Source: a virus. Taken from it: 44,480 bases of DNA. The stretch covers positions 1 to 44,480 of IMG/VR virus record IMGVR_UViG_3300048785_000093. One strand, written 5' to 3'. This document shows, piece after piece, positions 2,425-37,393 of the stretch. The translations under genes and the position numbers were made by a program. Position 1 is the stretch's first letter. Each line of letters begins with the position of its first letter. Under the pieces are notes generated by a model. That model saw only the letters and a list, made by a program, of their open reading frames with translations. It did no database searches and had not been told where the DNA came from.

Positions 2425-4476
2425 ATGACAACCGTTGAAAAACCAAAGACAAGCCACGGGCCGCCGCAGGGTGAGGCTGAACTGGCGGCGCTGTTTGAGC
2501 GCCTTGGGGTGACGACGCATCCCATGCTGCGTCTGCCCACGGTGGCGGAGGCGCGCGCGCTGGTGATGAGTCCGAACGGAAGCGAGGCGCTATATGGCCT
2601 GTTGGAGAAGCGCGAGAGACGGATTCTGCTGGCGGAAAACGACCCATTGAGCTGGGGCTGGGAATTTGAACCGTGGGAGGATGCGGACGCGATTTTGACG
2701 GGCCCGGGAAAAGCGCCGGGGGAACCCACGCCGCATATTCTGGCACTCTTTGGGGAGAATCGCTGCACCAAAACCTGGTATGCGGTCAAACGGGCACTGC
2801 AGGTGGCCAAGTGGTATCCGAAAAGCCTGGTGGTGATTTTGAGCGAGAAGGACGAGACAAGCATTTCACAGATCCAGAGCAAAATTGTGTGGGAAGTGTA
2901 TTTCCAGCGCGAATACCAGGCGATGAACGGCAAGCGGTCGCCGGCGAGCACGCTGGCGATCAATTACGGCCAGAAGAACGGATTTACTGACGGTAAAATC
3001 GTGCTGGAGAACGGGAGCGAAATTTATTTTTTGAGTTACGTGGCCGAGCCGGCGACCTACGAGGGCTGGGAATTCGGCGCGAAACAGGACATTTATGAAA
3101 AGACAAGCGCGGAACGCCGGGCGCTGGGACTGTTTGTGCCGCCGAATGTGGGGGCGGTGGCGGACGAAAGCATGCCGCTGGCCTGGTTCAAGATGCTTGA
3201 GCGGCGCGTGCGCTGGCGCGGGGCGAAACTAATCTGGAGTTTCACGCCGATCAAAGGGATCACGCCGGCGATGAAGCAAGTGACGGGGGCGGGCACGCGG
3301 ACGCTGCGGAGCAAACCAAGCCCGCTGCTGCCGGGCAGGAACGTGGGAGATTGTCCGATTGGGCACATGCCTTATATCCGCAAATGCAGTTATCCGGGCG
3401 CAATGGCGATCCATTTCTTTGGCGGGTTCAATCCGATGGGACCGGCGCCGGGCCGGACATACCACGACGCGGTGGCGGAGAGTTGTGCCGGCAAAACCAC
3501 GGAATATATCGAGCGGATCGGCTACGGGTTCGCACGCGACAGCATCGCGCGGGCGTTTCCGAATTTTGGGCCGCTGAACATTGTGGCGCGGGGCGCGATC
3601 CCGGCGAAAGGCACGAATTACTTTTTCTTTGACCCGCATGGGACTCGGAATTTTCCGATGGTATGGGTGCGGGCGGTGCCGACGCGGCCGACAAGCTGGT
3701 ATTTTTACCGGGAATGGCCGGACCTGGCAACCTACGGGGAATGGGCGGTGCCGACCGAACGCGAGGTGAACGACCAGCAGCGGAAAGGCTGGGACGGCGA
3801 TCCGGGCCCGGCGCAGACGGGGCTGGGATGGGGCGTGGAAAGGTATAAGCAGGAAATCCTCAAACAAGAATTGATTGAATTGCCTAAAACTTTTAATCCC
3901 AGCACGGGACATACTTTCCCGAACATAACACCAGAGGATGATTTTGAACTGATGATTGCTCCCGTTGTTGACCAATATCACCAACGCCGCTTGCGGGAAG
4001 CGTGGAGAGCCGGAGAGCCCATGCACGAATTGCACGAGGAGATTGCGGCGCGGTTTGGGGACCCGCGCGGGATCCACAATGAGCACGTGAGCGAGAAGGG
4101 CGGGACTACGCTTTACGATTTATTCGAGACGGAGCAGGTGGACCCGAGGACGGGCGCGGTGATGGCGCCGGCGATGGAGTTGTGGGACGCGCCGACATCC
4201 CGGCGCACGAACAGCGAGGAGGCGGATGAGGGGATAACGCTGTTAAACGGGCTGCTGGGCAGTCCGCTGGACGCGATGCCGGGGCTGCATCAGCCGCGGG
4301 TGTTTGTGTGCGAAGAATGCCGGCAGTTGATCTGGATGTTTGAGAATTACACGGGACGGAGCGGCGGGACCGGGGCCGCGAAGGATTTTGCCGATCTGGC
4401 GAAATACGCATGCCTGGCAGAATTGGAAGCGATTGATCCGGAACGGAAGACGGGCAGACCGGGCAGGGGATTTTAA
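2425..4476 (+). CDS. terL: Terminase large subunit
   Basis: Walker A-like LFGENRCTKT (compare GgNRsGKT of terminases) and Walker B-like VGAVADE. Nuclease-type acidic motifs FFFDPHG, RFGDPRG and KDFADLAKYA. The position ahead of the portal gene fits. Confidence 0.75.
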   Translation: MTTVEKPKTSHGPPQGEAELAALFERLGVTTHPMLRLPTVAEARALVMSPNGSEALYGLLEKRERRILLAENDPLSWGWEFEPWEDADAILTGPGKAPGEPTPHILALFGENRCTKTWYAVKRALQVAKWYPKSLVVILSEKDETSISQIQSKIVWEVYFQREYQAMNGKRSPASTLAINYGQKNGFTDGKIVLENGSEIYFLSYVAEPATYEGWEFGAKQDIYEKTSAERRALGLFVPPNVGAVADESMPLAWFKMLERRVRWRGAKLIWSFTPIKGITPAMKQVTGAGTRTLRSKPSPLLPGRNVGDCPIGHMPYIRKCSYPGAMAIHFFGGFNPMGPAPGRTYHDAVAESCAGKTTEYIERIGYGFARDSIARAFPNFGPLNIVARGAIPAKGTNYFFFDPHGTRNFPMVWVRAVPTRPTSWYFYREWPDLATYGEWAVPTEREVNDQQRKGWDGDPGPAQTGLGWGVERYKQEILKQELIELPKTFNPSTGHTFPNITPEDDFELMIAPVVDQYHQRRLREAWRAGEPMHELHEEIAARFGDPRGIHNEHVSEKGGTTLYDLFETEQVDPRTGAVMAPAMELWDAPTSRRTNSEEADEGITLLNGLLGSPLDAMPGLHQPRVFVCEECRQLIWMFENYTGRSGGTGAAKDFADLAKYACLAELEAIDPERKTGRPGRGF

Positions 4477-4494
4477 TAAAAACTGAAAGGATTT

Positions 4495-4875
4495 ATGAAG
4501 CGCGATGAATTCCAGAAATTGCCGCACTTGCTGACGCTGGCGCAGGTGGTGGCGTGCGGCTATTCGCCGGCGACGGTGGGGAAATACGCAGCCGCGGGGA
4601 TCCTGCGGGCGGTGCTTCCCAAAGGGACGACCCAAAGGCGATACCAGAAGTTGCAAGTGGCGCAGTTGCTCGGCTGGGAGGACGCGATTGACCGGAAAAG
4701 CTGGTGGCGCGAGAAACCACTGCTGCCGCCATGCGCGGTGAGCCAGTGGACAGGCTACGCGCCCAAGACGGTGGTGGAGATTGCGGAGGCTGGAGGCCTG
4801 ACAACCGTGCTGCCGGGCGGAGTGGGTGAACGGAAGTTCAGGAAGGAAGAAATCGAGGAGTGGCTGGGTTTATGA
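4495..4875 (+). CDS. Tandem excisionase-type (HTH_17-like) DNA-binding protein
   Basis: Two internal repeats: LLTLAQVVACGYSPATVGKYAAAGIL...RRYQKLQVAQLLG and AVSQWTGYAPKTVVEIAEAGGL...RKFRKEEIEEWLG. Confidence 0.55.
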   Translation: MKRDEFQKLPHLLTLAQVVACGYSPATVGKYAAAGILRAVLPKGTTQRRYQKLQVAQLLGWEDAIDRKSWWREKPLLPPCAVSQWTGYAPKTVVEIAEAGGLTTVLPGGVGERKFRKEEIEEWLGL

Positions 4876-5069
4876 TGAGCAGACAACAGAACCGGCGGCA
4901 CAGGATTGGCGGGGCGCTGGCCAGCCAGTTGCACCCAGTGCGGACACTGGCGGCGGTGGGACAGATCCTGGGCATGAAAAGCCAGCACGTTGAGCAGATC
5001 CAAAATATGGCGCTGTGGAAGTTGAGCATGGCCTTCAAGAAAGAAACGCAGGAGCTAAAGCAGGGTTGA
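4872..5069 (+). CDS. Stand-alone sigma-70 region 4.2-like HTH protein (65 aa)
   Basis: TLAAVGQILGMKSQHVEQIQNMALWKL aligns with RpoD [27 protein letters not shown]. ATG at 4872 overlaps the upstream stop. The ORF track starts it at GTG 4860. Confidence 0.6.
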   Translation: MMSRQQNRRHRIGGALASQLHPVRTLAAVGQILGMKSQHVEQIQNMALWKLSMAFKKETQELKQG

Positions 5070-5097
5070 AGGCGGCAAAGACGGGTTGAAATAAGGG
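5057..5097 (+). promoter_or_regulatory. Copy A of a duplicated 41-nt element with two GGGTTGAA boxes 20 nt apart
   Basis: AAAGCAGGGTTGAAGGCGGCAAAGACGGGTTGAAATAAGGG. It matches copy B at 35 of 41 positions, overlaps the stop codon of the upstream ORF and precedes the portal gene. Confidence 0.6.
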
Positions 5098-5141
5098 TGA
5101 AAGCCGAAGGCCAGAGGCCAAAGTGGTAAGAATGAGGCCAC

Positions 5142-7370
5142 ATGCCTGACAACGCGGACAAACTGGTGAGCAATCCGGATCCTTGCGTGGACTTGCTGAT
5201 GGAGGAATACAAGATGGCAAGCCCGCTGGGGGAAGGATTGTTTGACGCGAACTTTTGCGAGAACGTGCGGCGCAATCTCTGGCCGGGACAATCTCCGGAC
5301 GGCCGGAAATGGGATGAGTGGCAGGCGGATGGCGAACCGGCCGAGCCCTGGGATGGATGCAGCGATACACGGGTGCCGGCGGTGGACGGGGCGATCAATG
5401 CCGGCGTGGCGCTGGGCATGGCGGCGTTCCGGCGCGCGGAACTGACGGTGGCGACGGTGAACCCGGATGCGACGCCAATGGAAGGCCCGCTCTCGGCCTT
5501 TGGCCATTGGATGCTACGAAAGCGGTTCCGGCGCGAGCTCGAGCTGGAGGCGGAATTGAGCCTGCAATACATAGGCGAATACGGCTACTGCTGCGCCTAT
5601 GTGGGCTGGGAACGCGAATTGAACAAACGGCGCAAGATGGTGACGCTGGAGGAGTTGGCGCCGCTGGCGCAGCAAAACCCGGAATTTCAAAACCTGGTCC
5701 CGATGATCCTGGAAAGCCCGGACCTCGATGACGTGAGCGCACAGGCGATCCAGCAGATTTACCGGCTTTATGTGACGCAGGAAATGGCCGGAAAGGGATT
5801 TTTTGAGGATGAACTGGACGACGATAAACTGCTGACTCTGAAACTTTCCACGGCCAAGAGCTACGTTCGGGAGTTGCGCGAAGAGGGCAAGGTGGAAGTG
5901 CCCATGCCCTACGTGAGCAAGAATCAGCCACTCGTTTACATGGCGCGGCCGTATCACGAATTTTTGTGCTCGCGCGGCACGACGGAGATCCAGAGCGCGC
6001 GCTGCCTGTTTTTGCGCCGGACGTTCACCGAGGCTGAACTGGACGCGAAATTGCAGGACGGGTGGGACCCTAAATTTGTGGAGGAAGCCAAGAAGACGAA
6101 GGGGTCGCTTTCGATGTGGGGTAATCCGAGCGGACAGCCGACGATAGCGCCGACGAACATGAGCCCGGCCAAAGTGGTGGGCGGAGTGCGCTGGTATAAG
6201 CTGACACAAAGCCAATACGAACGCATTGAAATCGTTTATGCCTTCCGGCGCAACACGGACGAGAACGGCGTGACGGAAATTTACCAGACGATTTTAAGCC
6301 CGCACATCACGCATGATCCCAATGGCAAAAAGGATTTTTGCGCGAAGCACGAACTGGTGGACTACGCGCACGGGCGGTATCCGTTTGTGGCGCTCAAGCG
6401 GGAGAACCTGGGGCGGGGCCTGACGGAGACGCGGAGCGTGAGCGAGATTGGCGGGACATGGCAGGCGGAGGAGAAGACGCAGCGCGACATGCTGTTCAAC
6501 CGGGCGCAACTGGACACGCTGCCGCCGATCAGCGTTCCGAAGCTGGGCGGAACGGATTACAAGCTGGGCCCGGGCGCGCAGGTGCCTACGAAACGCGGGG
6601 ATGAATACAAGAAGCTGTTTGAACTGGGCCAGCCGCCAACACTGGCGCTGGAGATCATCAAGCTGCTGGCGGTGGAGCGCGCGGATTATTTCGGGCTGTT
6701 CCATCCGGAAGTGCCGCAGCCGGTGACGACGAGCAAACAGGAAAAGTCCTCGGGCGATTACTTCACATTCTGGTCGGAAATCCTTTTGCAGATGACGGCG
6801 TTATACCTGCAATACAATCCGCAGGAAGCGGCGCGGGTGACGGGCACTCCGGAGATTGCGGCGATTGACCCATTTGACTTGATGCAGAGCATCCAGTTTG
6901 GAATGGCGTTCGACATCATGGAACTGGACCACGATTACCTGATGAAGAAGCTGGAGACGATCGCGGAAAAGATACTGCCACTGGACGTGACGGGGACGAT
7001 AGACCGGAGCGCGCTGATTGCGCTGGCGGTGCGGATGATAGACAGCCGGCTGGCGGACAAGATTTTGATGGACCGCGGCGCGGCGAGCCAGAAGGTGTTT
7101 GACGACGTGATGGCGCAAACGATCAAGATGGCCAACGGGAACGAGGCGCAATACGTGGACAACGACCCCACGGCGCCGATGAAGATGCAATTTTTGCAGC
7201 AGATCGTGGCAAACAATCCGAAGTATCAGCAGCTCATGCAACAGGACGGCCGGTTTGTTCAACTCATGGAGAATTACAGCAAGAGCCTGCAAATGAGCAT
7301 TGACCAGCAACAGAACAAACAGGTCGGGCGGATCGGGGTGAAACCGATGACGGGAGTGCCGCAACAATGA
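5142..7370 (+). CDS. Portal protein (probable)
   Basis: 742-aa ORF in the canonical position after the large terminase and before scaffold and capsid. No specific motif verified. Confidence 0.6.
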   Translation: MPDNADKLVSNPDPCVDLLMEEYKMASPLGEGLFDANFCENVRRNLWPGQSPDGRKWDEWQADGEPAEPWDGCSDTRVPAVDGAINAGVALGMAAFRRAELTVATVNPDATPMEGPLSAFGHWMLRKRFRRELELEAELSLQYIGEYGYCCAYVGWERELNKRRKMVTLEELAPLAQQNPEFQNLVPMILESPDLDDVSAQAIQQIYRLYVTQEMAGKGFFEDELDDDKLLTLKLSTAKSYVRELREEGKVEVPMPYVSKNQPLVYMARPYHEFLCSRGTTEIQSARCLFLRRTFTEAELDAKLQDGWDPKFVEEAKKTKGSLSMWGNPSGQPTIAPTNMSPAKVVGGVRWYKLTQSQYERIEIVYAFRRNTDENGVTEIYQTILSPHITHDPNGKKDFCAKHELVDYAHGRYPFVALKRENLGRGLTETRSVSEIGGTWQAEEKTQRDMLFNRAQLDTLPPISVPKLGGTDYKLGPGAQVPTKRGDEYKKLFELGQPPTLALEIIKLLAVERADYFGLFHPEVPQPVTTSKQEKSSGDYFTFWSEILLQMTALYLQYNPQEAARVTGTPEIAAIDPFDLMQSIQFGMAFDIMELDHDYLMKKLETIAEKILPLDVTGTIDRSALIALAVRMIDSRLADKILMDRGAASQKVFDDVMAQTIKMANGNEAQYVDNDPTAPMKMQFLQQIVANNPKYQQLMQQDGRFVQLMENYSKSLQMSIDQQQNKQVGRIGVKPMTGVPQQ

Positions 7371-7702
7371 ATTTGAAATTCTGGCATCGGCAACAATCGA
7401 GCGGGGCGGAGTATGTGCGCCGGCTGGTGCCGATGGACGCGGCGGACAAGCGACAGGCGGAGCTGGAGCGCGACCTGGCGCTGGCGGGCATACGCGAAGA
7501 CCATCCGGTCTGGCAGGCGGTGCTGTTGCTGGTGGACGAGTGCGCGCAAGGCGCGCTTGAAGGCGCGCTGGCGCCGAATCTCACCAACGAACAGCGGCAG
7601 TTTGGCGCGGGCGCGGCGGCCAACGCGGAATACGTGGCCACCCTACTGCGGGACGCGCGGCTGCTGGCGGCGCAGAGGGCGGCCAAGGTAAAGCAGGGTT
7701 GA
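7367..7702 (+). CDS. Hypothetical protein (111 aa)
   Basis: ATGA-coupled to the portal gene. Ends ...KVKQG, the same last three residues as the 4872 ORF, because of the shared DNA element. Confidence 0.5.
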   Translation: MNLKFWHRQQSSGAEYVRRLVPMDAADKRQAELERDLALAGIREDHPVWQAVLLLVDECAQGALEGALAPNLTNEQRQFGAGAAANAEYVATLLRDARLLAAQRAAKVKQG

Positions 7703-7730
7703 AGACGTCAAAGGCGGGTTGAAACGCGGG
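7690..7730 (+). promoter_or_regulatory. Copy B of the duplicated 41-nt GGGTTGAA-box element
   Basis: AAAGCAGGGTTGAAGACGTCAAAGGCGGGTTGAAACGCGGG. It precedes the scaffold/capsid genes. Confidence 0.6.
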
Positions 7731-7829
7731 CGGAGACTTACCAAATAACTTCCAAGGCCGTTAAGTAGTTACATCGGGCGAACGTGTCGGCCCGAGTTAA
7801 CAACTTCGACACGGGATTCCGCAGAACAC

Positions 7830-9176
7830 ATGCACAGCATGGTCACTGAAACGACAACCATAAATGCGGGCAACGCAGGGAAGCCCGGAGAGGCGGCACC
7901 AGCCGTCCAGAAATCTGCACAGGCGCCGGCAGCGGCCGCAACGACTGCCATTGACCCGAAGAATTTAACGCCGGAAGGCATGACGCGACTGTTAAGCACG
8001 GATCTCGTCGAAGCCGAACCGGCATCCGCCCCAAAGGCGGCAGCCAGACCACCGGGCGAAGAAGTGCAGCCGGGTGCGAAGGCTGGTGACGATGAACCAA
8101 AAGAGCCGGAATGGACGCCGGACCAGAAAGCGTGGTTTGAACTGCGCGACAAGGCGGCAAACGCGGACGAAATATCCGCAGCCGACGGACAGGCACCGGA
8201 ATTCAGTGATGAACAAAGGGCTTGGCTGGAAGCGAACGAAACAGGCCAGAGTCCAGAGTCCAGAGCCGGCAGTCTGCCGGAGCATCTGGAGGCTGAACTT
8301 GAACAGTGGGAGAAGGCGGGCGGCACGCTGCCGCCGGCGCTTCAAAAGCTGGTGGAGAAACGCATCCACAAGATCACGGACGAGCGGGACGGGCACAAAC
8401 AACGGGCGGACGCGGCGGAAGCCGAGGTTACCCGGCTGACGGGCGAACTGGAGCAGGGCGCACGGCCGCCGGCCACGGGGCCGGGAGGGATGGATGAGAA
8501 ATCACTGGGTAAAACGGAAAACGACGCCAAGCAGTTCAGGGCGGACGCGAAGGCCTTCATTGACGGCTACGCGGACGAGGCGGCAACGGACCGCATCCAG
8601 AAATGGATGACGGCACGCGGGGTGGACGAGAAGGGACTGCGCCGGACACTGAACGACGTGGGCGAGTGGCTGCAGGAAACGCTGCCGTCGCTCAAACAGA
8701 ACGTGAAGGCGTTCCGCCAGCAGGAAACGGCCAATGAACCCGTGGTGAAAGCCTGGTTCCCAACGCTGGACAGCAAGGACAGCGAAGAGGGCAAGTTTGC
8801 GGCGGAAGTGATGCGGTTTGTGCCGGAATTGAAAAGCCGGAGTCCGGCCCATCGTTTTGCGGCCGGGGTATATGCCCTGGGCAACGTGGTCTGGAGCCAT
8901 TACCTGAAGGCCAACGGCGGCGACGCAAGCAAGGCGAACGTGGACATCATAAAGGCCACGCGGGAATTGCTGGCCAGGCACGTGCCCATCACGAACGGGC
9001 AGGCGGCATTTGCGGGGCGGAAAGCGCCACCGCGATTGCCAGTGCGGTCCGGAAGCCCGGGCCGGAGCCCGAGTGCGACGCGGAAGGACGCGCAAGCCGA
9101 GGAGGCAAGCCAATCCATACGGGAAAATCCAAGCGCGGAGAACGTAACGGCGGCGTTGAAAGCGGCCTTGGTCTGA
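7830..9176 (+). CDS. Scaffolding-like protein (acidic, Ala/Glu-rich, predicted coiled coil)
   Basis: Low-complexity acidic and helical composition. Located directly upstream of the major capsid gene. Confidence 0.5.
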   Translation: MHSMVTETTTINAGNAGKPGEAAPAVQKSAQAPAAAATTAIDPKNLTPEGMTRLLSTDLVEAEPASAPKAAARPPGEEVQPGAKAGDDEPKEPEWTPDQKAWFELRDKAANADEISAADGQAPEFSDEQRAWLEANETGQSPESRAGSLPEHLEAELEQWEKAGGTLPPALQKLVEKRIHKITDERDGHKQRADAAEAEVTRLTGELEQGARPPATGPGGMDEKSLGKTENDAKQFRADAKAFIDGYADEAATDRIQKWMTARGVDEKGLRRTLNDVGEWLQETLPSLKQNVKAFRQQETANEPVVKAWFPTLDSKDSEEGKFAAEVMRFVPELKSRSPAHRFAAGVYALGNVVWSHYLKANGGDASKANVDIIKATRELLARHVPITNGQAAFAGRKAPPRLPVRSGSPGRSPSATRKDAQAEEASQSIRENPSAENVTAALKAALV

Positions 9177-9200
9177 GTCACGAAAAGTTTGGAAATTGCA

Positions 9201-9236
9201 CTTCGTTTAACCAAAAGCTGAAAAGCTGAAACGAAG
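9201..9236 (+). promoter_or_regulatory. Hairpin in the capsid-gene leader (8-bp stem CTTCGTTT/AAACGAAG; the 20-nt loop carries a tandem AAAAGCTG)
   Basis: Inverted repeat read directly from the sequence. It ends 10 nt before the ATG at 9247. Confidence 0.45.
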
Positions 9237-9246
9237 AAAGAAAATT

Positions 9247-10263: not shown

Positions 10264-10302
10264 ACAACAACGAAAACAACACAAATTTAACCAAACAAAA
10301 TT

Positions 10303-26664: not shown

Positions 26665-27783
26665 ATGGCTGATGACATGACAGAAGCTGGAGCAATAGGC
26701 GGAGCGGGGCTGGGGAAATTCATTGGCGGATTTATCCAACGCGCCAAACAGGCGAAGACCCTACGAGCTGCCATTGATGATTACGCGCCGCGGTTTGCCG
26801 CTGGAGACAATGACCCGGCAACAGGCCAGCCGGTAACACCGGATCAGGTGGAAAAACTGACGCCGGAAGGACAGTCTAGAGTAGCATGGTCGCATACGGC
26901 CGGGTTGCCAGATTTGGAAGGCTACTGGCAGGGCGAAACCCAGAAGAGGGCCGCGCAAAAGACGCAGGCGGACATTGCCGAGCAACAGGGCCGGGCGAAG
27001 TATTACAGCGACTTTGGGGACATGCGCAAACAGCAGGAACAGACCTCGAAGGACGACGAGGCCGACCGGGAAAACATTTCCAACATGCTGGGCGACTTCA
27101 GCAAGACACACCTTATGCCGGGCGAAACGCCGGACGTGGACCCGGACACGGGCGAACCGGCCACGGACAAGAAACCGTTCAATCCGATGGAGCTGCTGAT
27201 GGGCGCCATGCAGGCCGGCGTGAAGCCGCGCAATCTGCAGTTCATCAGCCAGAGCCTCAAGGACGTGTCGGGGTATGGGACGGACACGGAGGACAAGCCA
27301 AACCTTACCCAGGTGCCATCGGGACCGCCGGGCAGCCAGGGTTACCACACCATCCCGGTATTGACCCGTGGCAAAGGCTGGACGCAGGTGGACCCTGCTT
27401 ATGGCGCGGCGGCACGCGGGGGAGAGACGGCGGAATTGCAGACTCAACGCGAGGCGGCGCGGACCAAACTTGCTCCAAAGGATTTATTGAAGTCCTATCA
27501 GGACGAATTGACGGCGCTGAACAACCCGATGAACTGGTCTGGCACCACGCCGGAAGACAGGGCGGGGCACAGGGCGGAATTGACCGGGAAGATCGAACAG
27601 TTGCGCGGGAACGCGACAGGCGCGCCGGCAGCGGCGGCCACGGCGGCAAAGGGCTCATCGGCTTTAAGCAGCGTGCCGGCGGAGAAGCGGACGGCCGTTG
27701 GCGCATTGCAGCAGCAACTGGTTGCGGGCAAGATCACGAAACAGCAATTCAAGGATGAACTGGGCAAACTGGGCATTCAATGA
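26665..27783 (+). CDS. Internal-virion-like protein (372 aa)
   Basis: N-terminal Gly-rich segment. ATGA-coupled to the giant ORF. Confidence 0.5.
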   Translation: MADDMTEAGAIGGAGLGKFIGGFIQRAKQAKTLRAAIDDYAPRFAAGDNDPATGQPVTPDQVEKLTPEGQSRVAWSHTAGLPDLEGYWQGETQKRAAQKTQADIAEQQGRAKYYSDFGDMRKQQEQTSKDDEADRENISNMLGDFSKTHLMPGETPDVDPDTGEPATDKKPFNPMELLMGAMQAGVKPRNLQFISQSLKDVSGYGTDTEDKPNLTQVPSGPPGSQGYHTIPVLTRGKGWTQVDPAYGAAARGGETAELQTQREAARTKLAPKDLLKSYQDELTALNNPMNWSGTTPEDRAGHRAELTGKIEQLRGNATGAPAAAATAAKGSSALSSVPAEKRTAVGALQQQLVAGKITKQQFKDELGKLGIQ

Positions 27784-30700
27784 GCCTGGCCGATGAACTG
27801 ACCGAGGAAGCCGCGCCACCGTCTTTGGCAGACGATTTGGCGAATGAAGCGCCGCAGCCAATCGGCGACCAACTCGCGCGCGAGGCGCTGGTGCAGCAGA
27901 AGCAAAAGCTGGCGGCCCTGCCGGAAACCGGAAAATGGCGCGAGCTGTTTCCGGCCATGTTCGATCTATCGGACGAGCAGAAGCAAAACGCCGAGACAAC
28001 TCATGGCGCATTTCAGAAGCTGCGCGAATCAGGACTGACACCCACACAGATTGCCCAAAACGCGCAGGCCGTCCACGACAAGTGGGATGCGATCATTTCA
28101 ATGGCTTCGGAGTCCAGGCCGGACAATGTGCCCAAGTTCATTGCGCAGCGGGACGCGGAATTGCGCCAGGCCGGCGTGGAACCGATGAACCTGGACAGCG
28201 CATTTACCCTGCCCAAGATGGACGAGAAGGACGTGCGCGAACTTTTCCCACACGCGCCCGGCCGGGCCGTAAATGCCATCCAAGCCGGCCAGAACACAGC
28301 GGCGGCGCTGGGCGAGGGCTTTGCATCGCCGGAAGGGGTGCTGATGTTTCCAGCCGGGGTGGGGCCACAGGTCGGGCGCGCTTTTCTGGCTCAAATGGCG
28401 GCGAGTTTGCCGGTGGATTTGAGCCAGGCGGCGGGCCATTACTCCGCAGGCGACCCGGAAAGCGGGGACAGCAAACTGATACAAGCGGGCGTGACAGCGG
28501 GCATGCTGGGCATACCCATTGTGGCTGGCAGACGCGCGGGGATACAACCGAAAGGAGCACAAAATGCCGAAGCAATACGAAGCGATACGGGACAGTTACC
28601 TGAAACGGGGCAAATCCCTGAAGGAGGCCAAGAAGCTGGCGGCCATGACGTGGAACAAGGACCACCCGAACAACCCGAACCCGTGGAGTCGGGAGGACGC
28701 GCAGGCGCGGGTGAAGAAGGCGCTGTCGAGCCGCCGACGGTAGCCGATCTGGAGCAGGAAGCGCTCGGCCCCAAACTACCCGATGTTCCACCGGTCGGCC
28801 CGACGCAACAACAACAGAAAGACCCAGACCAGCCGATATTTGACCCGAACGAATTTGGCAGGCTGGTGGCTGAACTCAAGAGCGTCGCCGCACACGATGA
28901 GGCGGTGCTGAATGCGCCGGTGTTGCCGGGGCCGCGCCAGGCGGAGGAAGTTTCGGATGAAGAAATCCAGAAAGCCAAAGCGGAGCCCGAAGCCATGCGG
29001 CAGGCGGAGATTGAACGGGTGCGGGCCAGCGCCGAGGCGCGCGGCGCGCAGGGGACAGCCGGCCCTGCCCGCTGGACGCCGCCAGTGGCCGAGCCGGTAG
29101 AGCCAGTGCCCGCAGCCGAGGGTGGTTACAGGTTTGCGGATGCGGTCAAAGACGCGGGCGGATTGAGCGCGCCGCCGCTGGACGATGCCCTGGCGGAGAT
29201 CCGGAATGGCAAGAGCGCAGCCAGGGTGGTGGCGGAGTGGAGCCACGGCGCCACCGGCCACGACGAACTGGCCGGGATACTCGAGGAGATTGCCGGCGCG
29301 CGGGACAACAAGGAAGCCGTGCTTTACCGTAACTTGCGCGCAGCTTACAAGAAAGCCTTTGCCTGGAACGAGCCCGCCGGCCAGGGCGCGCCGGATGAGA
29401 CGTTGGCGGGCCTGGGAGACATTCAGCGGGCAGGCATGATGCCGGACCATATGCCGGAGACCGAGGAGGAACTTTACCGGCAGCAGTGGGAACATCACAC
29501 AGCCGGGCCGCCCGTTGATGCGGAGGCCACACAGGGGGCACAGGATGCGGCGGATTTTGAAGTCTTTAATAAGAGCCTGACAGTCCATAGTCCAGAGTCC
29601 ACAGTCCCGGAAATTTGGAGCGGCGATCAGAAGCTGGGCGAGGTGCGGACGGGTGCGAGCGGCGCGAAACATTTTGTGCCGGGGCCGGAGGCGGAACGGT
29701 TGCCGCCGGAATATCAACTGGCCGTGATGAGCAAGGCCGGGATTGACATTGAACACGGGATGGCCGTGCCTGCCGGTGGCGAGGCGTTGCCGGGATTGGG
29801 CACCAGCCAGCCGGAACTGGACCCCACCATGCTGCGCAAGCTCACCAAGATGGCGAGCATTCTCGTGGAGCAGGGCAAGACGAGTTTCCCCGATTTCGCC
29901 AGGACGATGAGCCAGGCGCTTGACGGGAAGTTAAACCAGTATTATCATGCGGCATACGAACAAGTGCGGTTTTACACCGAGGCGTGGCACTTGCGGGACC
30001 GGCTTACGCCTCAAGAGGAGACCGAGACTTATGACAACAATGGCAACCGAACCGATCGAGCAGGCGCCGCTGGAGGCGGACCGGAGCTTTCTGGAACAGT
30101 GGGAGGAGCGGGCCGTGGCCGACGACCAGGCCTTCGCGTGGTTGACTTCCGAGATTTACCAGCGCCCAGACCGATTGTCCGCAGTGGCGAATATACGGGG
30201 CCGGGCGGCGCGGGCCTCGATGAGGTCCAGCGCTTCGCCGTCAATGCCGCCCTCACCGCCTTCGACGACGGCAAGAAAGCCTATCTCCTCGGGGACGGCA
30301 CAGGCGTCGGCAAAACCGGCACGGAACTCGCCATTGCCAACGCCTACGCGCAAAAGACCAAGCTCCCCAGCCTGATTGTCACACAGAGCATTCCCATAAT
30401 CGAAAACCGTTTCAAACAGGACGCCGTAAAGCTGGGCGTGCCCATGCAAAACACGACGTTCATCACCTACAGCGATCTGTCCACCGGCAAGGTGCCCGCC
30501 GGGAAGTTTGGCGTGGTGATCTATGACGAGGCTCACAATCTCAAGAACGCCGGCAGCGCGCGGGAGACGTATAGCCGCGACGTGCAGGCGGAACGCAAGG
30601 TCTTTGCCACCGCCACGCCCATGGATGGGCCCACGCACGCCAGTTATTTTTTGAGCGAGCTTACCGGCAAGACGCGGGAACAAATCGCATCGCAACTCGG

Positions 30701-33700
30701 CTTCCATTACGAACAGCGGATGGTGAACGGGAAGAGCCGCACGATGGCCGTGCTGGACAAAGACACGAGCTGGGGCACGGTGGTGGACCATATCAAGAAG
30801 CTGCGCAATCTGGCGGTGCAGGCCGGCCAGTTGATCCGGCGCGAATATCCTTTTTACGGCCGGGCGCAACTGCGCGAGGCGCCAGCCTATTCCAAGGCGC
30901 AGCGGGATGAACAGGAGACGATCATCGCCCATTGGGACAAGCTGATCAACGCCGCGCGACCGGGCAGCAATTACCGGCGCAATCTGGCAGGCCAGAAGAC
31001 GCTCGAGCTTTCGCGCTGGGCGGAGATCCAGAAGCTGCCGCACATCCGCGATGCCATGCTGCAGGATTACAAGGACGGCAAGCACGTAATTGTGTATGCG
31101 GAGAATTACAATCCGAGCATGGTAAAAGGCCTGGGCAAAAGCATTCCCGGTTTTCTCACCGAGTTGGGCAAGGAACTTGACGCCAGGAAAATCCCTTACG
31201 CCAAAGTGTTCGAGGACGATCCGTATGCCAAGGCGAAGGCGGCGGCGGCGTTCCAGGGCGGGCGGGTGAAGGTGTTGCTGGCCACGCCGCGCAGCGGTGG
31301 CGCCGGGCTGGACATGGACGACCAGATCGGTAATGCGCCGCGCCAGGCGCACGCGGCCACGCTCAACTTTAGCGCCGACGTGTTCGATCAGATGCTGGGC
31401 CGCGTCTCGAGGCGCAACACGGCCAGTCCGGCGGATTTTCATGTGTGGATGAACCGGGACAGCTTTGCCGATGGCCGAAGGATGCAGGTGGCGGACCGCA
31501 AATTGCGCGTGCTGCGCAACATCCAAGCGGGCGAAGACCTGGACACCAGCGAGTTTGAAGGGGAAGGGGAGCATGGGATGCCGGATTTCAACGGGGCATT
31601 TGCGTTTGAACCGGCGGAAAGCAGCGCGGAACAGGCGGCGAGGATGGTGGGCGAAGAAGTCCAGAGTCATCAGTCCGCAGTCCGCAGTCAAATGCAGGCG
31701 CGCGCGCAGGAGCGACTCACAGGCAGCACGGGCGATCTGGGACAAGGGGATTTTGTGGGCGGCGGGGATTTGTTCGCGCCAACAACGCGCGCTTCAGTTG
31801 AGCGGCCGATGTTCATTCCGCTCAAAAGCGAGTTCTTCGAGGCCTTCAAGTCGGGCGACAAACGTGAAGAATATCGGAAATATGGGCCCGGCTGGAATGA
31901 GAAAACCGCCCCGGTGGGGCGCAAGGTTGTTCTGTCGAAGGGTTATTCTGGCGAGAGGCTGACGGGCACGATTACCGGATTCAGAAAGGAAACGAATCCT
32001 CAGAGTCTTCCCGGCTGGAATAAGGTGTATGGATCAGAAGCCGGGACGGCGGCCGTCATTGAGATTGCGGTGGATCGAAACGAGTCTGAACATGGCCAGC
32101 CAGCCTTGCAGCGTGGCGGCGTGCCGGGGTTGCCGGTGGAAATGGACCAGACCAAGGCAGGCAAAGCCACCATCGGCCAGATCAATGCGGCGCTCGAAGC
32201 TGTCTCGCGCGCGGCGGGCGGCAATACGCCCATCCGGTCGGGCCGCGTGACCGGCCGCACGGCCATCGGACCGAATCGCGCCATTTACAAGGACCGTCAG
32301 GAAGTTGTCCGCGTGCGCAGTGTGGATGATATTCCCGCCGCCACGCATGAGATTGCCCATGACCTCGCCAAACAGGTGTTTGGGCGCGTGGCAGCCGGAG
32401 GCGATCAGGGTGGCTCTCCCGCGGCCATGCGCGAGCTGGAAGACCTGGGCAAGGCCCTTTACGGCGATGTGAAGCCCCTTGCGGGTTACGGTGGCGAAGG
32501 CTGGGCGGAATATCTCCGGCACTGGCTATCCACCGATGAGGCGCCAACAGTCGCGCCGCACATGACCAAGTGGTTTAATGAGCAGTTTTTGCCGTTACAC
32601 CCGGAGATTGCCGAGGCGCTGACGAAGGCGCGCGAGCTTATCACCACAAGCCGGCTGCAAGGGGCCGCAGCGCGCGCCCAGGCGCAACTGGCGAGGTCGC
32701 CGGGCGCTTTGCGGCAGATTGCCCAGGCATTGGGCCAGTTTGTAAGTTACAAGGCGCAGATTGAATCGTTCGCGCCCCTCGAGCGGCTGGTGAAGGCGGC
32801 GGAAGCCAGGGCGGGCAAGTTGCCGCCATCGGAGAATCCTTTCCTGCTGGCGTCATGGAAACGCGGCAGCGCCGGCGCCACAGTGGAGCGAATGGCCACC
32901 GAGCACATGCTGGATATTTGGGGCAATCCCGTCGGGCCATCGCTGCGCGAGGCGTTTGCGCCGGTGCAGGGCCAGCGCAGCGAGACGTTGCTGCTGGCCT
33001 TTGCCAAGGCGGCACAGGCGCGGTGGGAACAAACGCGCATGGTGACGGACCCAAGGAGCGGCCAGCGCTCTTTTTTACCGGACCCCAAGAATCCCGGCAT
33101 CAGTCTGGCGGATGCACAGCATATCATCAAGACCATGAGCACGCCGCAGCGCGAGATCGCGGTGCAGAAATGGCGTGAGTGGCACAATGGCCTGCTGGAT
33201 TACCTGGTGCAGGCGGATCCGGGCATGAAACCGCTCGCTGACAAATGGAAATCGGCACAGTTTTACATGCCGCTGGCGCGCATGATTGATCCGGCCCGAG
33301 CCAAGGCCGCAGCGGCGCTGGCCAATAGCAATCCTTTCTTCCGCATGCGCGGCAGCGGATTGCCCGTCAAGGATCTGCTGGACCAGACCATGCTGAATGC
33401 CGCGCGGCTGGTGAACCGGGCCAATCGCGCGCTCGTCACCAACAGCATCGTAAAATTGTCCAATCTCGAAGGGATGGGCCATTTGGTCGAGGCCATCCCG
33501 CGCGGGCGTGTGCGCAATCTGGTGTCGCTTGATCAGGTGCGGGCGCAGCTCGAGGACTTGGGCATTGACACAAGCGAAATGCCGAAGGATCGGATGCTGG
33601 AGTATTGGACGCCGGCGGACATGCCCAAAGGCAGCGCGCCGATCATCGCGGTGGGCAGTCCCGGCCAGCGGCGCTGGTTTCAGGTGGACCCGGAGCTTTA

Positions 33701-35333
33701 CCAGACTTTGGACGGGCTGCAAACTTACTCGCTCAAGCAGGCGTTGCCGGGTTTGCCCTATGCCGGCAAGCTGTTGGATCTCGTCCTGGGCGCGCCTACG
33801 CGCATGTTCCGGCTGGGCACAACGGCCATACGGCCCGGATTCCAGTTCATCACGCAACCCGCGCGGTCGCTGGCACTGATGCTGATGCAGGGGGATAATC
33901 CGGCGCGGTCGGCGCTCAATTATCCGGCGGCGCTGGCGGGCGTGCTCAAGGAAGGGTTCGGTGGCAAGGCTGAGCCATATTCGGCAGCGTTCAAGGATCT
34001 CGGCGCGCACATGGGCCAGCCGCTCGGCCTGGACATCGGCTATACCAAACGCATGAGCGATGAACTATTTCATGGGCGCGTGATCCGAACCGTGCAACAT
34101 CCCATTGACCATTTGCGCCAGTTGTTGAGCATACCCGAAGGCGCGCCGCGCGTGGCGGAGTTGAAAGCCATTGCGGACAAGATCGGCTGGACACCAGGCC
34201 GGCCCATGCTGCCGGATCAGGCAGTGCAGATGGCACTGGCGGCCAAGCGGGTGACAGTGGACTTTTCCGCCGCGGGCGACATGAGCCGGGTGCTGAACCA
34301 GGCGATCCCGTTTTACAATATCACACTGCAACACACGCGGGCGTATGCGCGGGCGTTCATGGAACATCCTGCGCGATCAGCCCTGCTGGCTGGCATGGTG
34401 TTCGCCGCGCCGACGCTGCTGAACTGGTGGCGCAACAAGGACAAGGAATGGTATCAGGCCATGCCGTGGAAGGAACGCTACCTTTACACCTGGCTCGACG
34501 ACGGCAAGAACCTGTGGAAGATCGCGCGGCCATTCGAATGGGGCATGACGGCGATGGCGCTGCCGGAAGCGATGGCAGACTCGTGGTATCGGCGCGATCC
34601 CGAGGCGGTGAAACACGCTTTGGGAGCAATATTCACGGACCTGGATCCGGTGGATTATCCGGTGTTGCTCAAGCTGGCCAAGGAACAATGGCAGAACCGT
34701 ATTGCCTACTTTGACCGGCCAATCGTGCCGCCGTCCGAAGTGGGATTGCCGGCGAACCAGCAGCGCGGGCCCTACACCTCGAGGCTGGCCATCGGCATCA
34801 ACAAGGTTTTCCCCGATGCGAGTCCCCGGCGCGTGGATGCTTTCCTGCGCGGCTATTTCGGCGGCGCGGGCACGGAGGCAATGCAACTCATCGGCTTGGG
34901 ACCACCGCGATCCGGCCGCGGCTGGGAACCGACGGATCTGCCCGTGGCGGGCACGCTGTTCAGGGCAGGCGGCCAGTTCAACGCCAACAACCAGTTTGTG
35001 GCGGACTTTTACGACCGTTACAACCTGATGCAATCGCAGTTCGAGGCGTGGCAAGTGCAGGCCAGCCGGGCCAAGATCACCGGGCAGCCGCCCACGATGC
35101 AGCCGCCAGACTGGGGCATGCAGATGAAGCGGACCATTGCGACGGGCACCACCAAGGAACCGGGCGCAGCACCGGCCTTGAAGGCACTGATGGCGCTGGC
35201 CGGCGCCACGCGGGACAACGATCAGCGCAGTGCGCTCTACCGCGAGGCCGGAGAGACAGCCAAGCGCGCGGTGGAAGCGTTTGATCGTGTGGACAAAGTA
35301 GCGGCACCAAACGGCGCAGCAGGCGGCAAATGA
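27780..35333 (+). CDS. Giant polyvalent protein (2,517 aa): SF2 SNF2/strawberry-notch-like helicase, ASCH-like domain, HExxH zincin, and large unassigned N- and C-terminal regions
   Basis: Helicase motifs GDGTGVGKTG (nt ~30291), VVIYDEAHNLKN (DEAH at 30525..30536), FATATP, LLATPRSGGAGLDMDD and QMLGRVSRRN (~31389). ASCH-like FIPLKSEFFEAFKSGDKREEYR...GRKVVLSKGY (~31806..32075). HEIAH at 32346..32360 followed by EGWAEY. Confidence 0.8.
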   Translation: MSLADELTEEAAPPSLADDLANEAPQPIGDQLAREALVQQKQKLAALPETGKWRELFPAMFDLSDEQKQNAETTHGAFQKLRESGLTPTQIAQNAQAVHDKWDAIISMASESRPDNVPKFIAQRDAELRQAGVEPMNLDSAFTLPKMDEKDVRELFPHAPGRAVNAIQAGQNTAAALGEGFASPEGVLMFPAGVGPQVGRAFLAQMAASLPVDLSQAAGHYSAGDPESGDSKLIQAGVTAGMLGIPIVAGRRAGIQPKGAQNAEAIRSDTGQLPETGQIPEGGQEAGGHDVEQGPPEQPEPVESGGRAGAGEEGAVEPPTVADLEQEALGPKLPDVPPVGPTQQQQKDPDQPIFDPNEFGRLVAELKSVAAHDEAVLNAPVLPGPRQAEEVSDEEIQKAKAEPEAMRQAEIERVRASAEARGAQGTAGPARWTPPVAEPVEPVPAAEGGYRFADAVKDAGGLSAPPLDDALAEIRNGKSAARVVAEWSHGATGHDELAGILEEIAGARDNKEAVLYRNLRAAYKKAFAWNEPAGQGAPDETLAGLGDIQRAGMMPDHMPETEEELYRQQWEHHTAGPPVDAEATQGAQDAADFEVFNKSLTVHSPESTVPEIWSGDQKLGEVRTGASGAKHFVPGPEAERLPPEYQLAVMSKAGIDIEHGMAVPAGGEALPGLGTSQPELDPTMLRKLTKMASILVEQGKTSFPDFARTMSQALDGKLNQYYHAAYEQVRFYTEAWHLRDRLTPQEETETYDNNGNRTDRAGAAGGGPELSGTVGGAGRGRRPGLRVVDFRDLPAPRPIVRSGEYTGPGGAGLDEVQRFAVNAALTAFDDGKKAYLLGDGTGVGKTGTELAIANAYAQKTKLPSLIVTQSIPIIENRFKQDAVKLGVPMQNTTFITYSDLSTGKVPAGKFGVVIYDEAHNLKNAGSARETYSRDVQAERKVFATATPMDGPTHASYFLSELTGKTREQIASQLGFHYEQRMVNGKSRTMAVLDKDTSWGTVVDHIKKLRNLAVQAGQLIRREYPFYGRAQLREAPAYSKAQRDEQETIIAHWDKLINAARPGSNYRRNLAGQKTLELSRWAEIQKLPHIRDAMLQDYKDGKHVIVYAENYNPSMVKGLGKSIPGFLTELGKELDARKIPYAKVFEDDPYAKAKAAAAFQGGRVKVLLATPRSGGAGLDMDDQIGNAPRQAHAATLNFSADVFDQMLGRVSRRNTASPADFHVWMNRDSFADGRRMQVADRKLRVLRNIQAGEDLDTSEFEGEGEHGMPDFNGAFAFEPAESSAEQAARMVGEEVQSHQSAVRSQMQARAQERLTGSTGDLGQGDFVGGGDLFAPTTRASVERPMFIPLKSEFFEAFKSGDKREEYRKYGPGWNEKTAPVGRKVVLSKGYSGERLTGTITGFRKETNPQSLPGWNKVYGSEAGTAAVIEIAVDRNESEHGQPALQRGGVPGLPVEMDQTKAGKATIGQINAALEAVSRAAGGNTPIRSGRVTGRTAIGPNRAIYKDRQEVVRVRSVDDIPAATHEIAHDLAKQVFGRVAAGGDQGGSPAAMRELEDLGKALYGDVKPLAGYGGEGWAEYLRHWLSTDEAPTVAPHMTKWFNEQFLPLHPEIAEALTKARELITTSRLQGAAARAQAQLARSPGALRQIAQALGQFVSYKAQIESFAPLERLVKAAEARAGKLPPSENPFLLASWKRGSAGATVERMATEHMLDIWGNPVGPSLREAFAPVQGQRSETLLLAFAKAAQARWEQTRMVTDPRSGQRSFLPDPKNPGISLADAQHIIKTMSTPQREIAVQKWREWHNGLLDYLVQADPGMKPLADKWKSAQFYMPLARMIDPARAKAAAALANSNPFFRMRGSGLPVKDLLDQTMLNAARLVNRANRALVTNSIVKLSNLEGMGHLVEAIPRGRVRNLVSLDQVRAQLEDLGIDTSEMPKDRMLEYWTPADMPKGSAPIIAVGSPGQRRWFQVDPELYQTLDGLQTYSLKQALPGLPYAGKLLDLVLGAPTRMFRLGTTAIRPGFQFITQPARSLALMLMQGDNPARSALNYPAALAGVLKEGFGGKAEPYSAAFKDLGAHMGQPLGLDIGYTKRMSDELFHGRVIRTVQHPIDHLRQLLSIPEGAPRVAELKAIADKIGWTPGRPMLPDQAVQMALAAKRVTVDFSAAGDMSRVLNQAIPFYNITLQHTRAYARAFMEHPARSALLAGMVFAAPTLLNWWRNKDKEWYQAMPWKERYLYTWLDDGKNLWKIARPFEWGMTAMALPEAMADSWYRRDPEAVKHALGAIFTDLDPVDYPVLLKLAKEQWQNRIAYFDRPIVPPSEVGLPANQQRGPYTSRLAIGINKVFPDASPRRVDAFLRGYFGGAGTEAMQLIGLGPPRSGRGWEPTDLPVAGTLFRAGGQFNANNQFVADFYDRYNLMQSQFEAWQVQASRAKITGQPPTMQPPDWGMQMKRTIATGTTKEPGAAPALKALMALAGATRDNDQRSALYREAGETAKRAVEAFDRVDKVAAPNGAAGGK
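28564..28743 (+). CDS. 59-aa basic helical protein overprinted in the +1 frame of the giant ORF
   Basis: AAGGAG at 28552..28557 lies 6 nt before the ATG. 51 of 59 codons end in G/C, against 27 of 60 in the main frame over the same span. Sequence: MPKQYEAIRDSYLKRGKSLKEAKKLAAMTWNKDHPNNPNPWSREDAQARVKKALSSRRR. Confidence 0.6.
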   Translation: MPKQYEAIRDSYLKRGKSLKEAKKLAAMTWNKDHPNNPNPWSREDAQARVKKALSSRRR

Positions 35334-35663: not shown

Positions 35664-36860
35664 TCATAGTTGCTGTTGAACGATGGTGAGAACGGGCACC
35701 TGGTCGAGCACGGCCCAGTGCGCGGCGATGTCGTCGAGGTTCGCGGGCTTGAATTTGCAGACAAAGTGACTGTAGTGAGCTTCCGTAACCTTCACGCTGC
35801 TGTGGCGCAACCAGGTTTGGGCATCGTAAATCCCATATTTCATTGCGACCTGGCTGCCGGCATAGGCGCGCAAGGCGTGGTTTGTCTTTTGTGTCTGCCA
35901 GCCGAGGCCGCGCAGGAAGTCCGACACGCCCCGCGGAAGACCGTCGGCGCGATAACTGGCGCTGCCGAGGATAATAAAGTCCCCCGTAAGCCAGCCGCGC
36001 GCTATGGCCTTCGTCCGCATGATGGTGTAAAACGGATCCAACGCGCGGACTTGGACGAGCCCGGTCTTGTTTTTTACGTGCGCCTCGCCATCGAGCACAG
36101 GATAACCCTGCCGGGCGGTCCACCAACTCCACTTTGCTTGGGCCACTTCGCCAATGCGCAGTCCAAAGGCCAACTCATGGCCGATGGCAAGGAAGAGGTT
36201 GCGGTCGTCGAGCACTTCCCACGCAGCCAGCGTGCGCTGGATGATCTCGTCAGAGGGCGGATTGTATTCAATTCGTGGCAGGTCGGCGAAGGGTTTAACC
36301 GCAAGAAACTTGTCGAGGCTGCCAGGCAATTTCAACCGGCAGTCTTCCGTAAAATACTCCCGCATGTCATCGCTAAATACGCTGCGCGCCTGCCGCAACA
36401 CGGAATTTGACGTGCGCAAAACCCGTGTGTGATTCGCGTCAATCTGCTTGCCATTGGCGAAGGCTGCCTTTTGAAGCTTCCACGCACGCAAGAGATCATA
36501 AGTCATGGCACCAACGTCCAGAGCTTTTCCCATGTCCGCCATAATCTTGCCCAGGCAATTGATATTGCCGCGCCGTGTTTTTGGAGCGGGCCGCCTCCCT
36601 GGATAGCGCAGGTATGCCGCTTCGACCTCTGCCCAGGACGAATAGCCAACGTTTCGCATCCTGGTGCCATCCAACCGCTCGAACTGGCCGGCAATGATGG
36701 CTTCGGTGATTTCCTTGTGGAGCAGCCGCGCGCGCTGCTGCGCAATACTGGCATCATTTGTTTGGAGGCAACGGGGATAGACCACGCCCCGGAAGGCGAA
36801 TTTGAAATACCAAGGCGCGTCCCGGGTCTCGGAACGTTTGTGCAGGGCGAAAGTTTTCAT
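35664..36860 (-). CDS. int: Tyrosine recombinase / phage integrase
   Basis: Catalytic signature GLRIGE ... NHALRAYAGS ... WLRHSSVKVTEAHY (R, HxxR, H, Y). Adjacent to the tRNA-fragment attP. Confidence 0.9.
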   Translation of the reverse strand: MKTFALHKRSETRDAPWYFKFAFRGVVYPRCLQTNDASIAQQRARLLHKEITEAIIAGQFERLDGTRMRNVGYSSWAEVEAAYLRYPGRRPAPKTRRGNINCLGKIMADMGKALDVGAMTYDLLRAWKLQKAAFANGKQIDANHTRVLRTSNSVLRQARSVFSDDMREYFTEDCRLKLPGSLDKFLAVKPFADLPRIEYNPPSDEIIQRTLAAWEVLDDRNLFLAIGHELAFGLRIGEVAQAKWSWWTARQGYPVLDGEAHVKNKTGLVQVRALDPFYTIMRTKAIARGWLTGDFIILGSASYRADGLPRGVSDFLRGLGWQTQKTNHALRAYAGSQVAMKYGIYDAQTWLRHSSVKVTEAHYSHFVCKFKPANLDDIAAHWAVLDQVPVLTIVQQQL

Positions 36861-36869
36861 AGACGCGAA

Positions 36870-37157
36870 TTATAACGGAGCGTTGGTTTCGATGGATGAA
36901 GCGGGAATGAAATTCGAAATTGGTGCCCAGTCGGCGACGCCATTTTTCGTGACATAACGCAGAAACCATGCGCGCCCGGTGGCAGTGTCAAGTTTTACGG
37001 CCGTTTCCAAAATCTGCGGATGATTCAGGTCGGGCCCTATTATCTCCAGCCGCACGGGTATGATGGTATAACGCCCGATTTGAGGGGATGGTGAATCGCC
37101 AGCGGCAACGGTTAGAATTAACAGCAAAGCTAATGCCAAAATAGTGGGTTTTTTCAC
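36870..37157 (-). CDS. Small exported protein (signal peptide), lysogeny-module moron / superinfection-exclusion candidate
   Basis: The N-terminus is MKKPTILALALLLILTVAAGDSP. Overlap-coupled to the RHH gene and 9 nt upstream of int. Confidence 0.55.
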   Translation of the reverse strand: MKKPTILALALLLILTVAAGDSPSPQIGRYTIIPVRLEIIGPDLNHPQILETAVKLDTATGRAWFLRYVTKNGVADWAPISNFIPASSIETNAPL

Positions 37158-37393
37158 GGTTTCCTTTTATTGCGGTAACTGACAGGTTCGTTGAGTTCTG
37201 GCCGTTCCGTTGGCCTGATGACGGATGATGCCACATCGGGCACGCTGACATTTCCCGGTTTCCGCTCAAAGTATTCCCTCAAAGCCTCGCGAACGATTAC
37301 AGAAAGCGCTTCGCCGCGGCGTTCGGCCTCCGCGTCAAGTTGTCGGCGCAGTTCCGCTGTAAGACGCAAGTAAATCGTCTCTTCTTTCGTCAT
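37154..37393 (-). CDS. Ribbon-helix-helix (CopG/Arc-like) DNA-binding protein; repressor candidate
   Basis: IYLRLTAELRRQLDAEAERRGEALSVIVREALREYF fits the RHH beta-alpha-alpha pattern. First gene of the minus-strand lysogeny operon. Confidence 0.7.
   Translation of the reverse strand: MTKEETIYLRLTAELRRQLDAEAERRGEALSVIVREALREYFERKPGNVSVPDVASSVIRPTERPELNEPVSYRNKRKP

Follow-up and report, generated by a model that had tools for sequence, protein, structure and literature searches.

Is the 65-aa protein encoded between the terminase and portal genes of this virus truly a piece of a sigma factor and, if so, what would such a piece do on its own? The question was raised by an earlier note on this DNA, which described a free-standing look-alike of sigma-70 region 4.2 at this place. 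We use "the window" for the whole stretch of 44,480 nt that was analysed. The features around the gene are as follows.

2425 to 4476, plus strand: large terminase homolog, 683 aa, recognised by synteny and by homologs in relatives, with no Pfam or PHROG match
4495 to 4875, plus strand: 126-aa gene with two HTH_17/BldC/excisionase-like domains (Pfam HTH_17, E=1.9e-6, in two stretches; NCBIfam HTH_BldC, E=1.4e-8)
4857 to 4860, plus strand: candidate ribosome-binding site GGAG, 11 nt before the ATG, read from the sequence
4872 to 5069 (stop codon included), plus strand: gene for a stand-alone sigma-70 region-4.2-like helix-turn-helix (HTH) protein, an ORF of 65 aa (P0001)
5142 to 7370, plus strand: portal-like gene, which served to find relatives

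The ORF is as the earlier note had drawn it, at 4872..5069 on the plus strand, and the peptide quoted there, TLAAVGQILGMKSQHVEQIQNMALWKL, occupies residues 25-51 (nt 4944-5024) of the full product, MMSRQQNRRHRIGGALASQLHPVRTLAAVGQILGMKSQHVEQIQNMALWKLSMAFKKETQELKQG. This product has a pI of 11.5, a net charge of +7 and an Arg-rich N-terminal arm. Its start and the upstream stop share nucleotides in the sequence ATGA, the ATG lying at 4872-4874 and the TGA of the 126-aa gene at 4873-4875, an arrangement that points to coupled translation of the two genes.

The GC3 of the gene is 0.76, similar to that of the adjoining genes. Public gene callers report the identical 65-aa product on 7 other metagenome contigs from several samples (5 of them among the matches listed), and the contigs with this product that were compared are 99.9-100% identical to the window at the DNA level. 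Across the gene itself there is zero sequence variation among these phage copies from other samples, so that dN/dS is not computable. With six homologs of conserved length, a GC3 like that of coding sequence and identical copies from several metagenomes, we regard the ORF as a real gene. The same three observations speak against a functionless chance ORF, an explanation that we hold, together with a KH-like RNA-binding motif (see below), to be barely credible.

One of the otherwise identical copies, L005, has approximately 425 extra bases (its positions 501-926) upstream of the 216-aa gene, at a place corresponding to about 1449-1453 of the window. This is an indel polymorphism.

The residue-for-residue alignment to the -35-recognition HTH of E. 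coli RpoD, on which the earlier note was built, holds up as 10 identities in 27 ungapped positions (RpoD 572-598), and it is backed by profile matches at the level of the family. Its BLOSUM62 score of 40 was matched by none of 100,000 shuffles, although this figure is indicative only, since the alignment had been chosen beforehand. For the 65-aa protein alone, the sole Pfam match at E<=10 is Sigma70_r4 (PF04545), with E=0.0021 and 17.9 bits, below the gathering cut-off of 24.1 bits. The match covers profile positions 21-48 of 50 and leaves positions 1-20, the region 4.1 part, unmatched. A full Sigma70_r4 domain with the region 4.1 helix was thus not found, the N-terminal helix being left unaligned by both HMMER and hhalign. 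NCBIfam matches are limited to the C-termini of sigma-32, FliA/WhiG and RpoS (E=0.003-0.06). PHROGs gave no match for the protein itself, tblastn against 50,697 phage records gave nothing meaningful, and a word-index protein search returned the protein alone; its rerun with the family alignment added no members.

With phmmer against the PDB, the top match of the single sequence was to the KH domains of IGF2BP1 (E=0.009), where "VGQILGMKSQHV" is set against the GxxG loop, and sigma region 4 chains followed at E of about 0.5. This is what the KH-like reading draws on. The match, however, is gone when the family profile is used, the motif is GMKS and not GxxG, and the AlphaFold2 (AF2) model described below is all-helical, with no beta strands. 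Family profile and all-alpha model effectively refute a KH-domain identity.

An HMMER scan of 1.84 billion representatives returned six relatives of the protein. Five of them are free-standing, with 64-80 aa and 34-45% identity to the 65-aa query. P0003, the remaining one, has 334 aa with ankyrin repeats and two canonical copies of region 4, and it was left out of the family profile, whose six members are therefore the query and the five free-standing relatives. The family is rare and scattered over phages and integrative elements. Its members lie in small-gene clusters with no neighbours in common; one is found after an integrase, near a gene for a Cro/CI-type HTH_3 repressor, and none adjoins a homolog of the packaging genes of this phage.

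The two region 4 copies of P0003 are near-identical, and the ALWKL motif is found in this protein too. The fusion to ankyrin repeats is unusual.

At the family level the picture is much clearer. Sigma70_r4 is matched by 4 of the 6 members in Pfam (best E=2.2e-7), and a precomputed PF04545 match, marked weak, exists for the member P0002. The family profile retrieves sigma-A/RpoD region 4 chains from the PDB at E=1.7e-6 to 1e-3, and every NCBIfam match of the family is a sigma factor. In PHROGs, "RNA polymerase sigma factor" leads (two members, best E=0.0003), with the others weak and limited to single members. With hhalign, for which the comparison sequences, GerE and RpoE included, were entered by hand, the family aligned to E. 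coli sigma-70 region 4 with a probability of 90.9% (E=1.1e-6), against 22% over 18 columns for region 4 of RpoE (ECF) and 4.8% for GerE. GerE is also absent from the Pfam matches of the 65-aa protein at E<=10, and the ECF-type Sigma70_r4_2 has no Pfam match with either the protein or the family.

The earlier note had proposed a profile search against Sigma70_r4/r4_2 and LuxR/GerE, and had seen placement in an unrelated HTH family as the result that would speak against it. Neither Pfam, NCBIfam, the PDB profile nor hhalign gave such a placement; sigma region 4 was favoured, with GerE and ECF far behind. Judged from the sequences, the likeness to region 4.2 is homology and not chance, with support that is weak from the single sequence and solid from the family. 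The region 4.2 HTH of the sigma-70 family is therefore recognisable here. Region 2 (core binding, -10 recognition) was not found in these 65 aa, where the sigma alignment is limited to residues ~20-53, and the earlier note was right that regions 2 and 3 are both missing.

The protein was modelled by AF2 with the family alignment, which gave a three-helix HTH with a pLDDT of 91.7 and a pTM of 0.72, the helices spanning residues 4-19, 26-33 and 37-64. The last of the three is unusually long. Its parts are placed on the DNA as follows.

4881 to 4928, plus strand: N-terminal basic helix, residues 4-19 (RQQNRRHRIG...), from AF2
4941 to 5024, plus strand: region-4.2-like HTH, residues 24-51, from Pfam, PDB profile, hhalign, AF2 and invariant columns
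4980 to 5063, plus strand: recognition helix, residues 37-64, from AF2 with the family alignment

The HTH comprises the helix at 26-33, the turn and the start of the recognition helix. A helix before the HTH is a trait shared with sigma region 4, but no similarity of helix 4-19 to region 4.1 was detectable, the sigma alignment beginning at residue ~20, and the helix that follows 4.2 in sigma factors has no counterpart in the 65-aa protein. The recognition helix is predicted by AF2 to be about 12 residues longer than its sigma equivalent. The top Foldseek matches in the PDB are sigma region 4 on -35 DNA (3n97, 1ku7) and homeodomain-DNA complexes, with E of about 1 and none significant; scores of this kind are usual for a 65-residue domain. 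A single-sequence AF2 model, a two-helix hairpin for which Foldseek pointed to RNAP beta-prime coiled coils, was dropped for the alignment-based one.

The residues kept and lost relative to sigma-70 are informative on function. The HTH follows the pattern of the homologous element in RpoD/SigA, RpoS, RpoH, FliA and SigK, (R)TL-x-E-V/I-G...V-x-Q-I-E-x-x-A-L-x-K-L, and keeps the E. coli scaffold of T572-L573, V576-G577, Q589-I590, A594-L595 and K597-L598. Within the family, (R)TL..(V/I), A-L-W-K-(I/L) and the Q42 column (Gln in 5 of 6) are conserved, and A47 and K50 of the ALWK motif are invariant in all six members. Unlike in sigma 4.2, R584, E585, R586, R588 and K593 are replaced in the 65-aa protein by S, Q, H, E and M, and these positions vary between family members. 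In sigma-70 the first four contact bases, and R584, R586, R588 and K593 are among the side chains that touch the -35 element. At the position of R596, an activator-contact residue of sigma-70, there is a Trp in 4 of 6 members (W49 in this protein). All six members are basic, as is the N-terminal arm of each one. A conserved scaffold with variable recognition positions would be expected of DNA binders with diverged targets. With six members, the family allows a thin conservation analysis.

The same pattern can also be read without DNA binding. The protein could be a mimic or decoy of sigma region 4 that would occupy a partner of the host domain and so divert or block host transcription; candidate partners are the beta flap-tip helix, an anti-sigma, an activator and a Wbl-type factor. 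True homology to region 4.2, the loss of the -35-contacting arginines and the fact that A-L-W-K-I/L, in the C-terminal half of the recognition helix, is the best-conserved stretch all agree with this. The sigma-70 counterpart of that stretch adjoins surfaces used by activators and by AsiA. Known phage proteins target the interface of sigma region 4 and the beta flap, namely T4 AsiA, gp33, P23-45 gp39 and Xp10 P7 (PMC2988020, PMC3950348, PMC3985653). T4 gp33 is a late co-activator that binds the beta flap, and gp33, AsiA and P23-45 gp39 are all small (PMC2988020, PMC3950348). These three provide a conceptual model by analogy, both for a decoy and for the split sigma considered later; they are not homologs of region 4.2, and no similarity to the 65-aa protein was detected.

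Against a decoy, the sigma alignment stops short of both region 4.1 and the C-terminal helix. Much of the pocket that binds the flap is supplied by the helix that opens region 4.1 and by the one that follows 4.2 (mutant classes R541 and L607 of E. coli). The high positive charge and the basic arm, moreover, fit nucleic-acid binding better, and the gene is dispensable in the 21 relatives described below. We consider a decoy unlikely. Its more specific form, a phage mimic of host sigma region 4 that competes through the A-L-W-K face for the flap tip or a docking factor, is quite unlikely. If it were true, host RNA polymerase would be re-programmed late in infection or from the prophage, and the protein would stand for a new class of transcription hijackers that derive from sigma factors and travel as single-gene mobile modules. 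To our knowledge, decoys derived from sigma factors have not been established as a class among the proteins with which phages take over their hosts.

We then turn to the place of the gene in the phage lineage. Searches based on the portal and the terminase found 21 related loci, with portal or terminase identities from 29% to 78%. A homolog of the 65-aa protein was found in none of them (hmmsearch, family HMM). In the closest relatives, L016 and L017 (portal 78%), a spacer of 88 nt separates the upstream gene from the portal gene. Elsewhere the slot holds an 80-aa ORFan (L001), 0.64 kb (L019) or 1 kb with two ORFs (L020), all unrelated. Absence from the 21 loci, the short spacer of L016/L017 and the variability of the slot indicate that the gene corresponds to a recent, lineage-specific insertion of approximately 177 nt, roughly 4876-5052. 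The earlier note had called the placement inside the morphogenesis operon unusual; a designed feature of that operon is not supported, as the slot is variable and the gene is missing from all 21 related loci. By this comparison the gene appears to be accessory and dispensable in the lineage.

The upstream 126-aa gene behaves differently from its neighbour. It has homologs in L001, L016-L020 and L026-L030, and this tandem HTH_17 (HTH_17x2) gene is retained between the large terminase and the portal in the majority of relatives with a portal identity of about 50% or more. A single-domain version is found in L002 and L025 (4828..5025 in L025).

In L016 (2713-3737), and also in L017, about 1 kb with three small ORFs lies where the window has the 683-aa terminase homolog. 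The L016/L017 contig is absent from the terminase matches, and the terminase gene has seemingly been relocated or replaced.

A search of genome contigs with the portal alignment returned a single MAG fragment of 2.3 kb with the label Actinomycetota, and the host could not be assigned from it.

The location in the packaging module, with coupling to a conserved DNA-binding gene, brings in a packaging accessory, a DNA-recognition subunit resembling a small terminase. Many small terminases have an N-terminal HTH. A small terminase, however, would be conserved with TerL and portal and would have an oligomerisation domain. The gene is absent from the 21 relatives that have a homologous terminase, portal or both, its homologs are not found beside homologs of this phage's packaging genes, and the 65 aa hold no oligomerisation or TerL-binding domain and have no PHROG terminase match. 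A role in packaging is for these reasons highly improbable.

The gene also touches a duplicated element, with the following copies.

5053 to 5091, plus strand: copy A, upstream of the portal gene, orthologous to L016 4117-4158
7686 to 7724, plus strand: copy B, upstream of the 448-aa gene, orthologous to L016 6899-6940

The element noticed in the earlier note is real. The two copies, 39 nt long and 90% identical where none is expected by chance, are the only ones within the window, and each contains two GGGTTGAA boxes 20 nt apart. The 65-aa gene ends within copy A, which provides its final five codons and stop; copy B plays the same part for the 111-aa gene (7367..7702), whose stop it overlaps. 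Units of AAAG..GGG recur within the element approximately every 10 nt. RNA folding of both copies revealed no structure (z-scores -0.9 and +0.3), and a scan of 4400-9400 for sigma-70 promoters and terminators found nothing above shuffles. It could serve as an array of binding sites or as a site of late regulation.

The earlier note had linked the gene to this element. On that view the 65-aa protein would be the dedicated regulator of the element, binding the boxes at 5057-5091 and 7690-7724 with their 20-nt spacing and thereby controlling expression of the portal and scaffold genes. There are exactly two copies, one of which starts within the last codons of the gene; the 20-nt spacing would put both boxes on the same face of the helix; and RNA structure leaves the element unexplained. 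L016, though, lacks the gene and yet has both copies of the element in the corresponding positions, one preceding the portal gene and the other lying between the 111-aa and 448-aa genes. There the element is 42 nt long, with copies 93% identical, and all four copies from the window and L016 align mutually. It follows that the element is older than the insertion and does not need the 65-aa gene to work, and the connection that the earlier note drew between its TTGAA boxes and the gene breaks down. The conserved tandem HTH_17 (BldC/Xis-like) protein of 126 aa is the more parsimonious candidate binder; it could be a binder of the packaging site or of the repeat element. We find it very unlikely that the 65-aa protein is devoted to this element, both as a regulator of the portal and scaffold genes and as the binder of these particular boxes.

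As no region 2 or 3 is present in the 65 aa and no partner is found in the window, the protein is, by its domain content, not a sigma factor. It might still supply the region 4 function for a separate region 2 protein, as half of a split sigma or as a late co-activator. T4 gp33 with gp55 and B. subtilis SigO-RsoA are the models for such an arrangement. An architecture with region 4.2 only would be plausible for such a half, and expression with the late genes would suit it. The other window ORFs scanned with Pfam and PHROG (the 2517-aa ORF with Pfam only), however, gave no Sigma70_r2 or r3 match and no strong match of sigma or RNAP type; they include a DNA methylase, a DnaB-type helicase, a primase/helicase, an integrase, RHH and HTH_17 proteins and virion proteins. 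The homologs have no conserved neighbour, and the relatives run the same late genes without the 65-aa gene. A split sigma is scarcely probable. Both this and the decoy are less likely than a small DNA-binding regulator.

Our preferred reading, to which we give about an even chance, is a horizontally acquired, accessory HTH protein that stands alone, recognises specific DNA sequences and regulates transcription, its gene being co-expressed with the late genes. The HTH fold, the strong positive charge, the conserved scaffold with variable recognition positions and the regulatory-type contexts of the homologs all point to a DNA-binding regulator. The protein would derive from the region 4.2 HTH of a sigma-70-family factor of groups 1-3. 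After horizontal acquisition, its gene would have been inserted exactly at the stop codon of the HTH_17x2 gene, before the portal gene, and this position would bring co-expression with the packaging and head genes. The recognition helix, S37-L51, would bind dsDNA sequence-specifically with the aid of the basic N-terminal arm, and the DNA target is probably other than the -35 hexamer. The protein would act as a small transcription regulator, like stand-alone HTH proteins of the GerE, Cro or homeodomain type, and not as a sigma factor. On the other side, the replacement of most -35-contacting side chains means that DNA binding is not simply transferable from sigma, and the exposed, conserved W49 could form a protein-protein surface instead of taking part in DNA binding.

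The closest functional analogy to such a regulator is with GerE and the stand-alone LuxR-type regulators, which have about 70 aa and a region-4-like HTH only. The profile probability of 4.8% argues against membership of the 65-aa protein in that family. In the literature, a search for phage proteins that consist of region 4 alone and have been characterised gave annotation-level precedents only. P. acnes phage PAD20/PAS50 gp24 is a small phage protein annotated only as sigma-70 region 4 or putative sigma factor (PMC3094311), and BFVD contains small phage proteins with a weak Sigma70_r4 match, for example the 74-aa protein of Enterococcus phage EfV12-phi1. All of these are short, with a weak Sigma70_r4 match as the sole recognisable feature; no sequence relationship to the 65-aa protein is detectable and the genomic positions differ. 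Small phage proteins annotated as "sigma-70 region 4" are thus already known, and this protein joins them.

If the protein is a simple HTH regulator, its gene is one more accessory gene of a poorly known temperate phage lineage, and the case also shows that region 4.2 of a sigma factor can be taken up and persist as a mobile module of 65 aa. The significance would be larger if RNA polymerase, or a partner of sigma region 4, were the target of the module. As the gene is dispensable, the link to the repeat fails and nothing points to a mechanism other than the usual one of an HTH protein, we regard the significance as modest. The duplicated element, with a position conserved across relatives and a candidate tandem BldC/Xis-like partner, is maybe the more tractable regulatory question.

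Other genes of the window give some idea of the phage itself. A PHROG integrase match (E=4e-14) was found among the scanned ORFs, most likely for the 398-aa ORF at 35664..36860 on the minus strand, whose Pfam integrase match is weak (E=0.08). A CopG-type RHH gene (37154..37393, minus strand) adjoins this integrase-like ORF. From its gene content the phage is probably temperate, and it looks dependent on the host RNAP. The 2517-aa ORF (27780..35333) has ResIII/SNF2-type helicase and LPD38 domains and can be described as a "large polyvalent protein", a kind known from phages and conjugative elements.

Lastly, the structural genes have A/G-rich leaders without obvious Shine-Dalgarno sites. These leaders often contain phage-specific short tandem repeats, such as two copies of AAAAGCTGA, three of CGCAGAGAA or three of GATGGCA. 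Leaders with such repeats are found at 9177-9246 and 10264-10302 of the window, at 3819-3853 of L001 and at 4162-4190 of L016.
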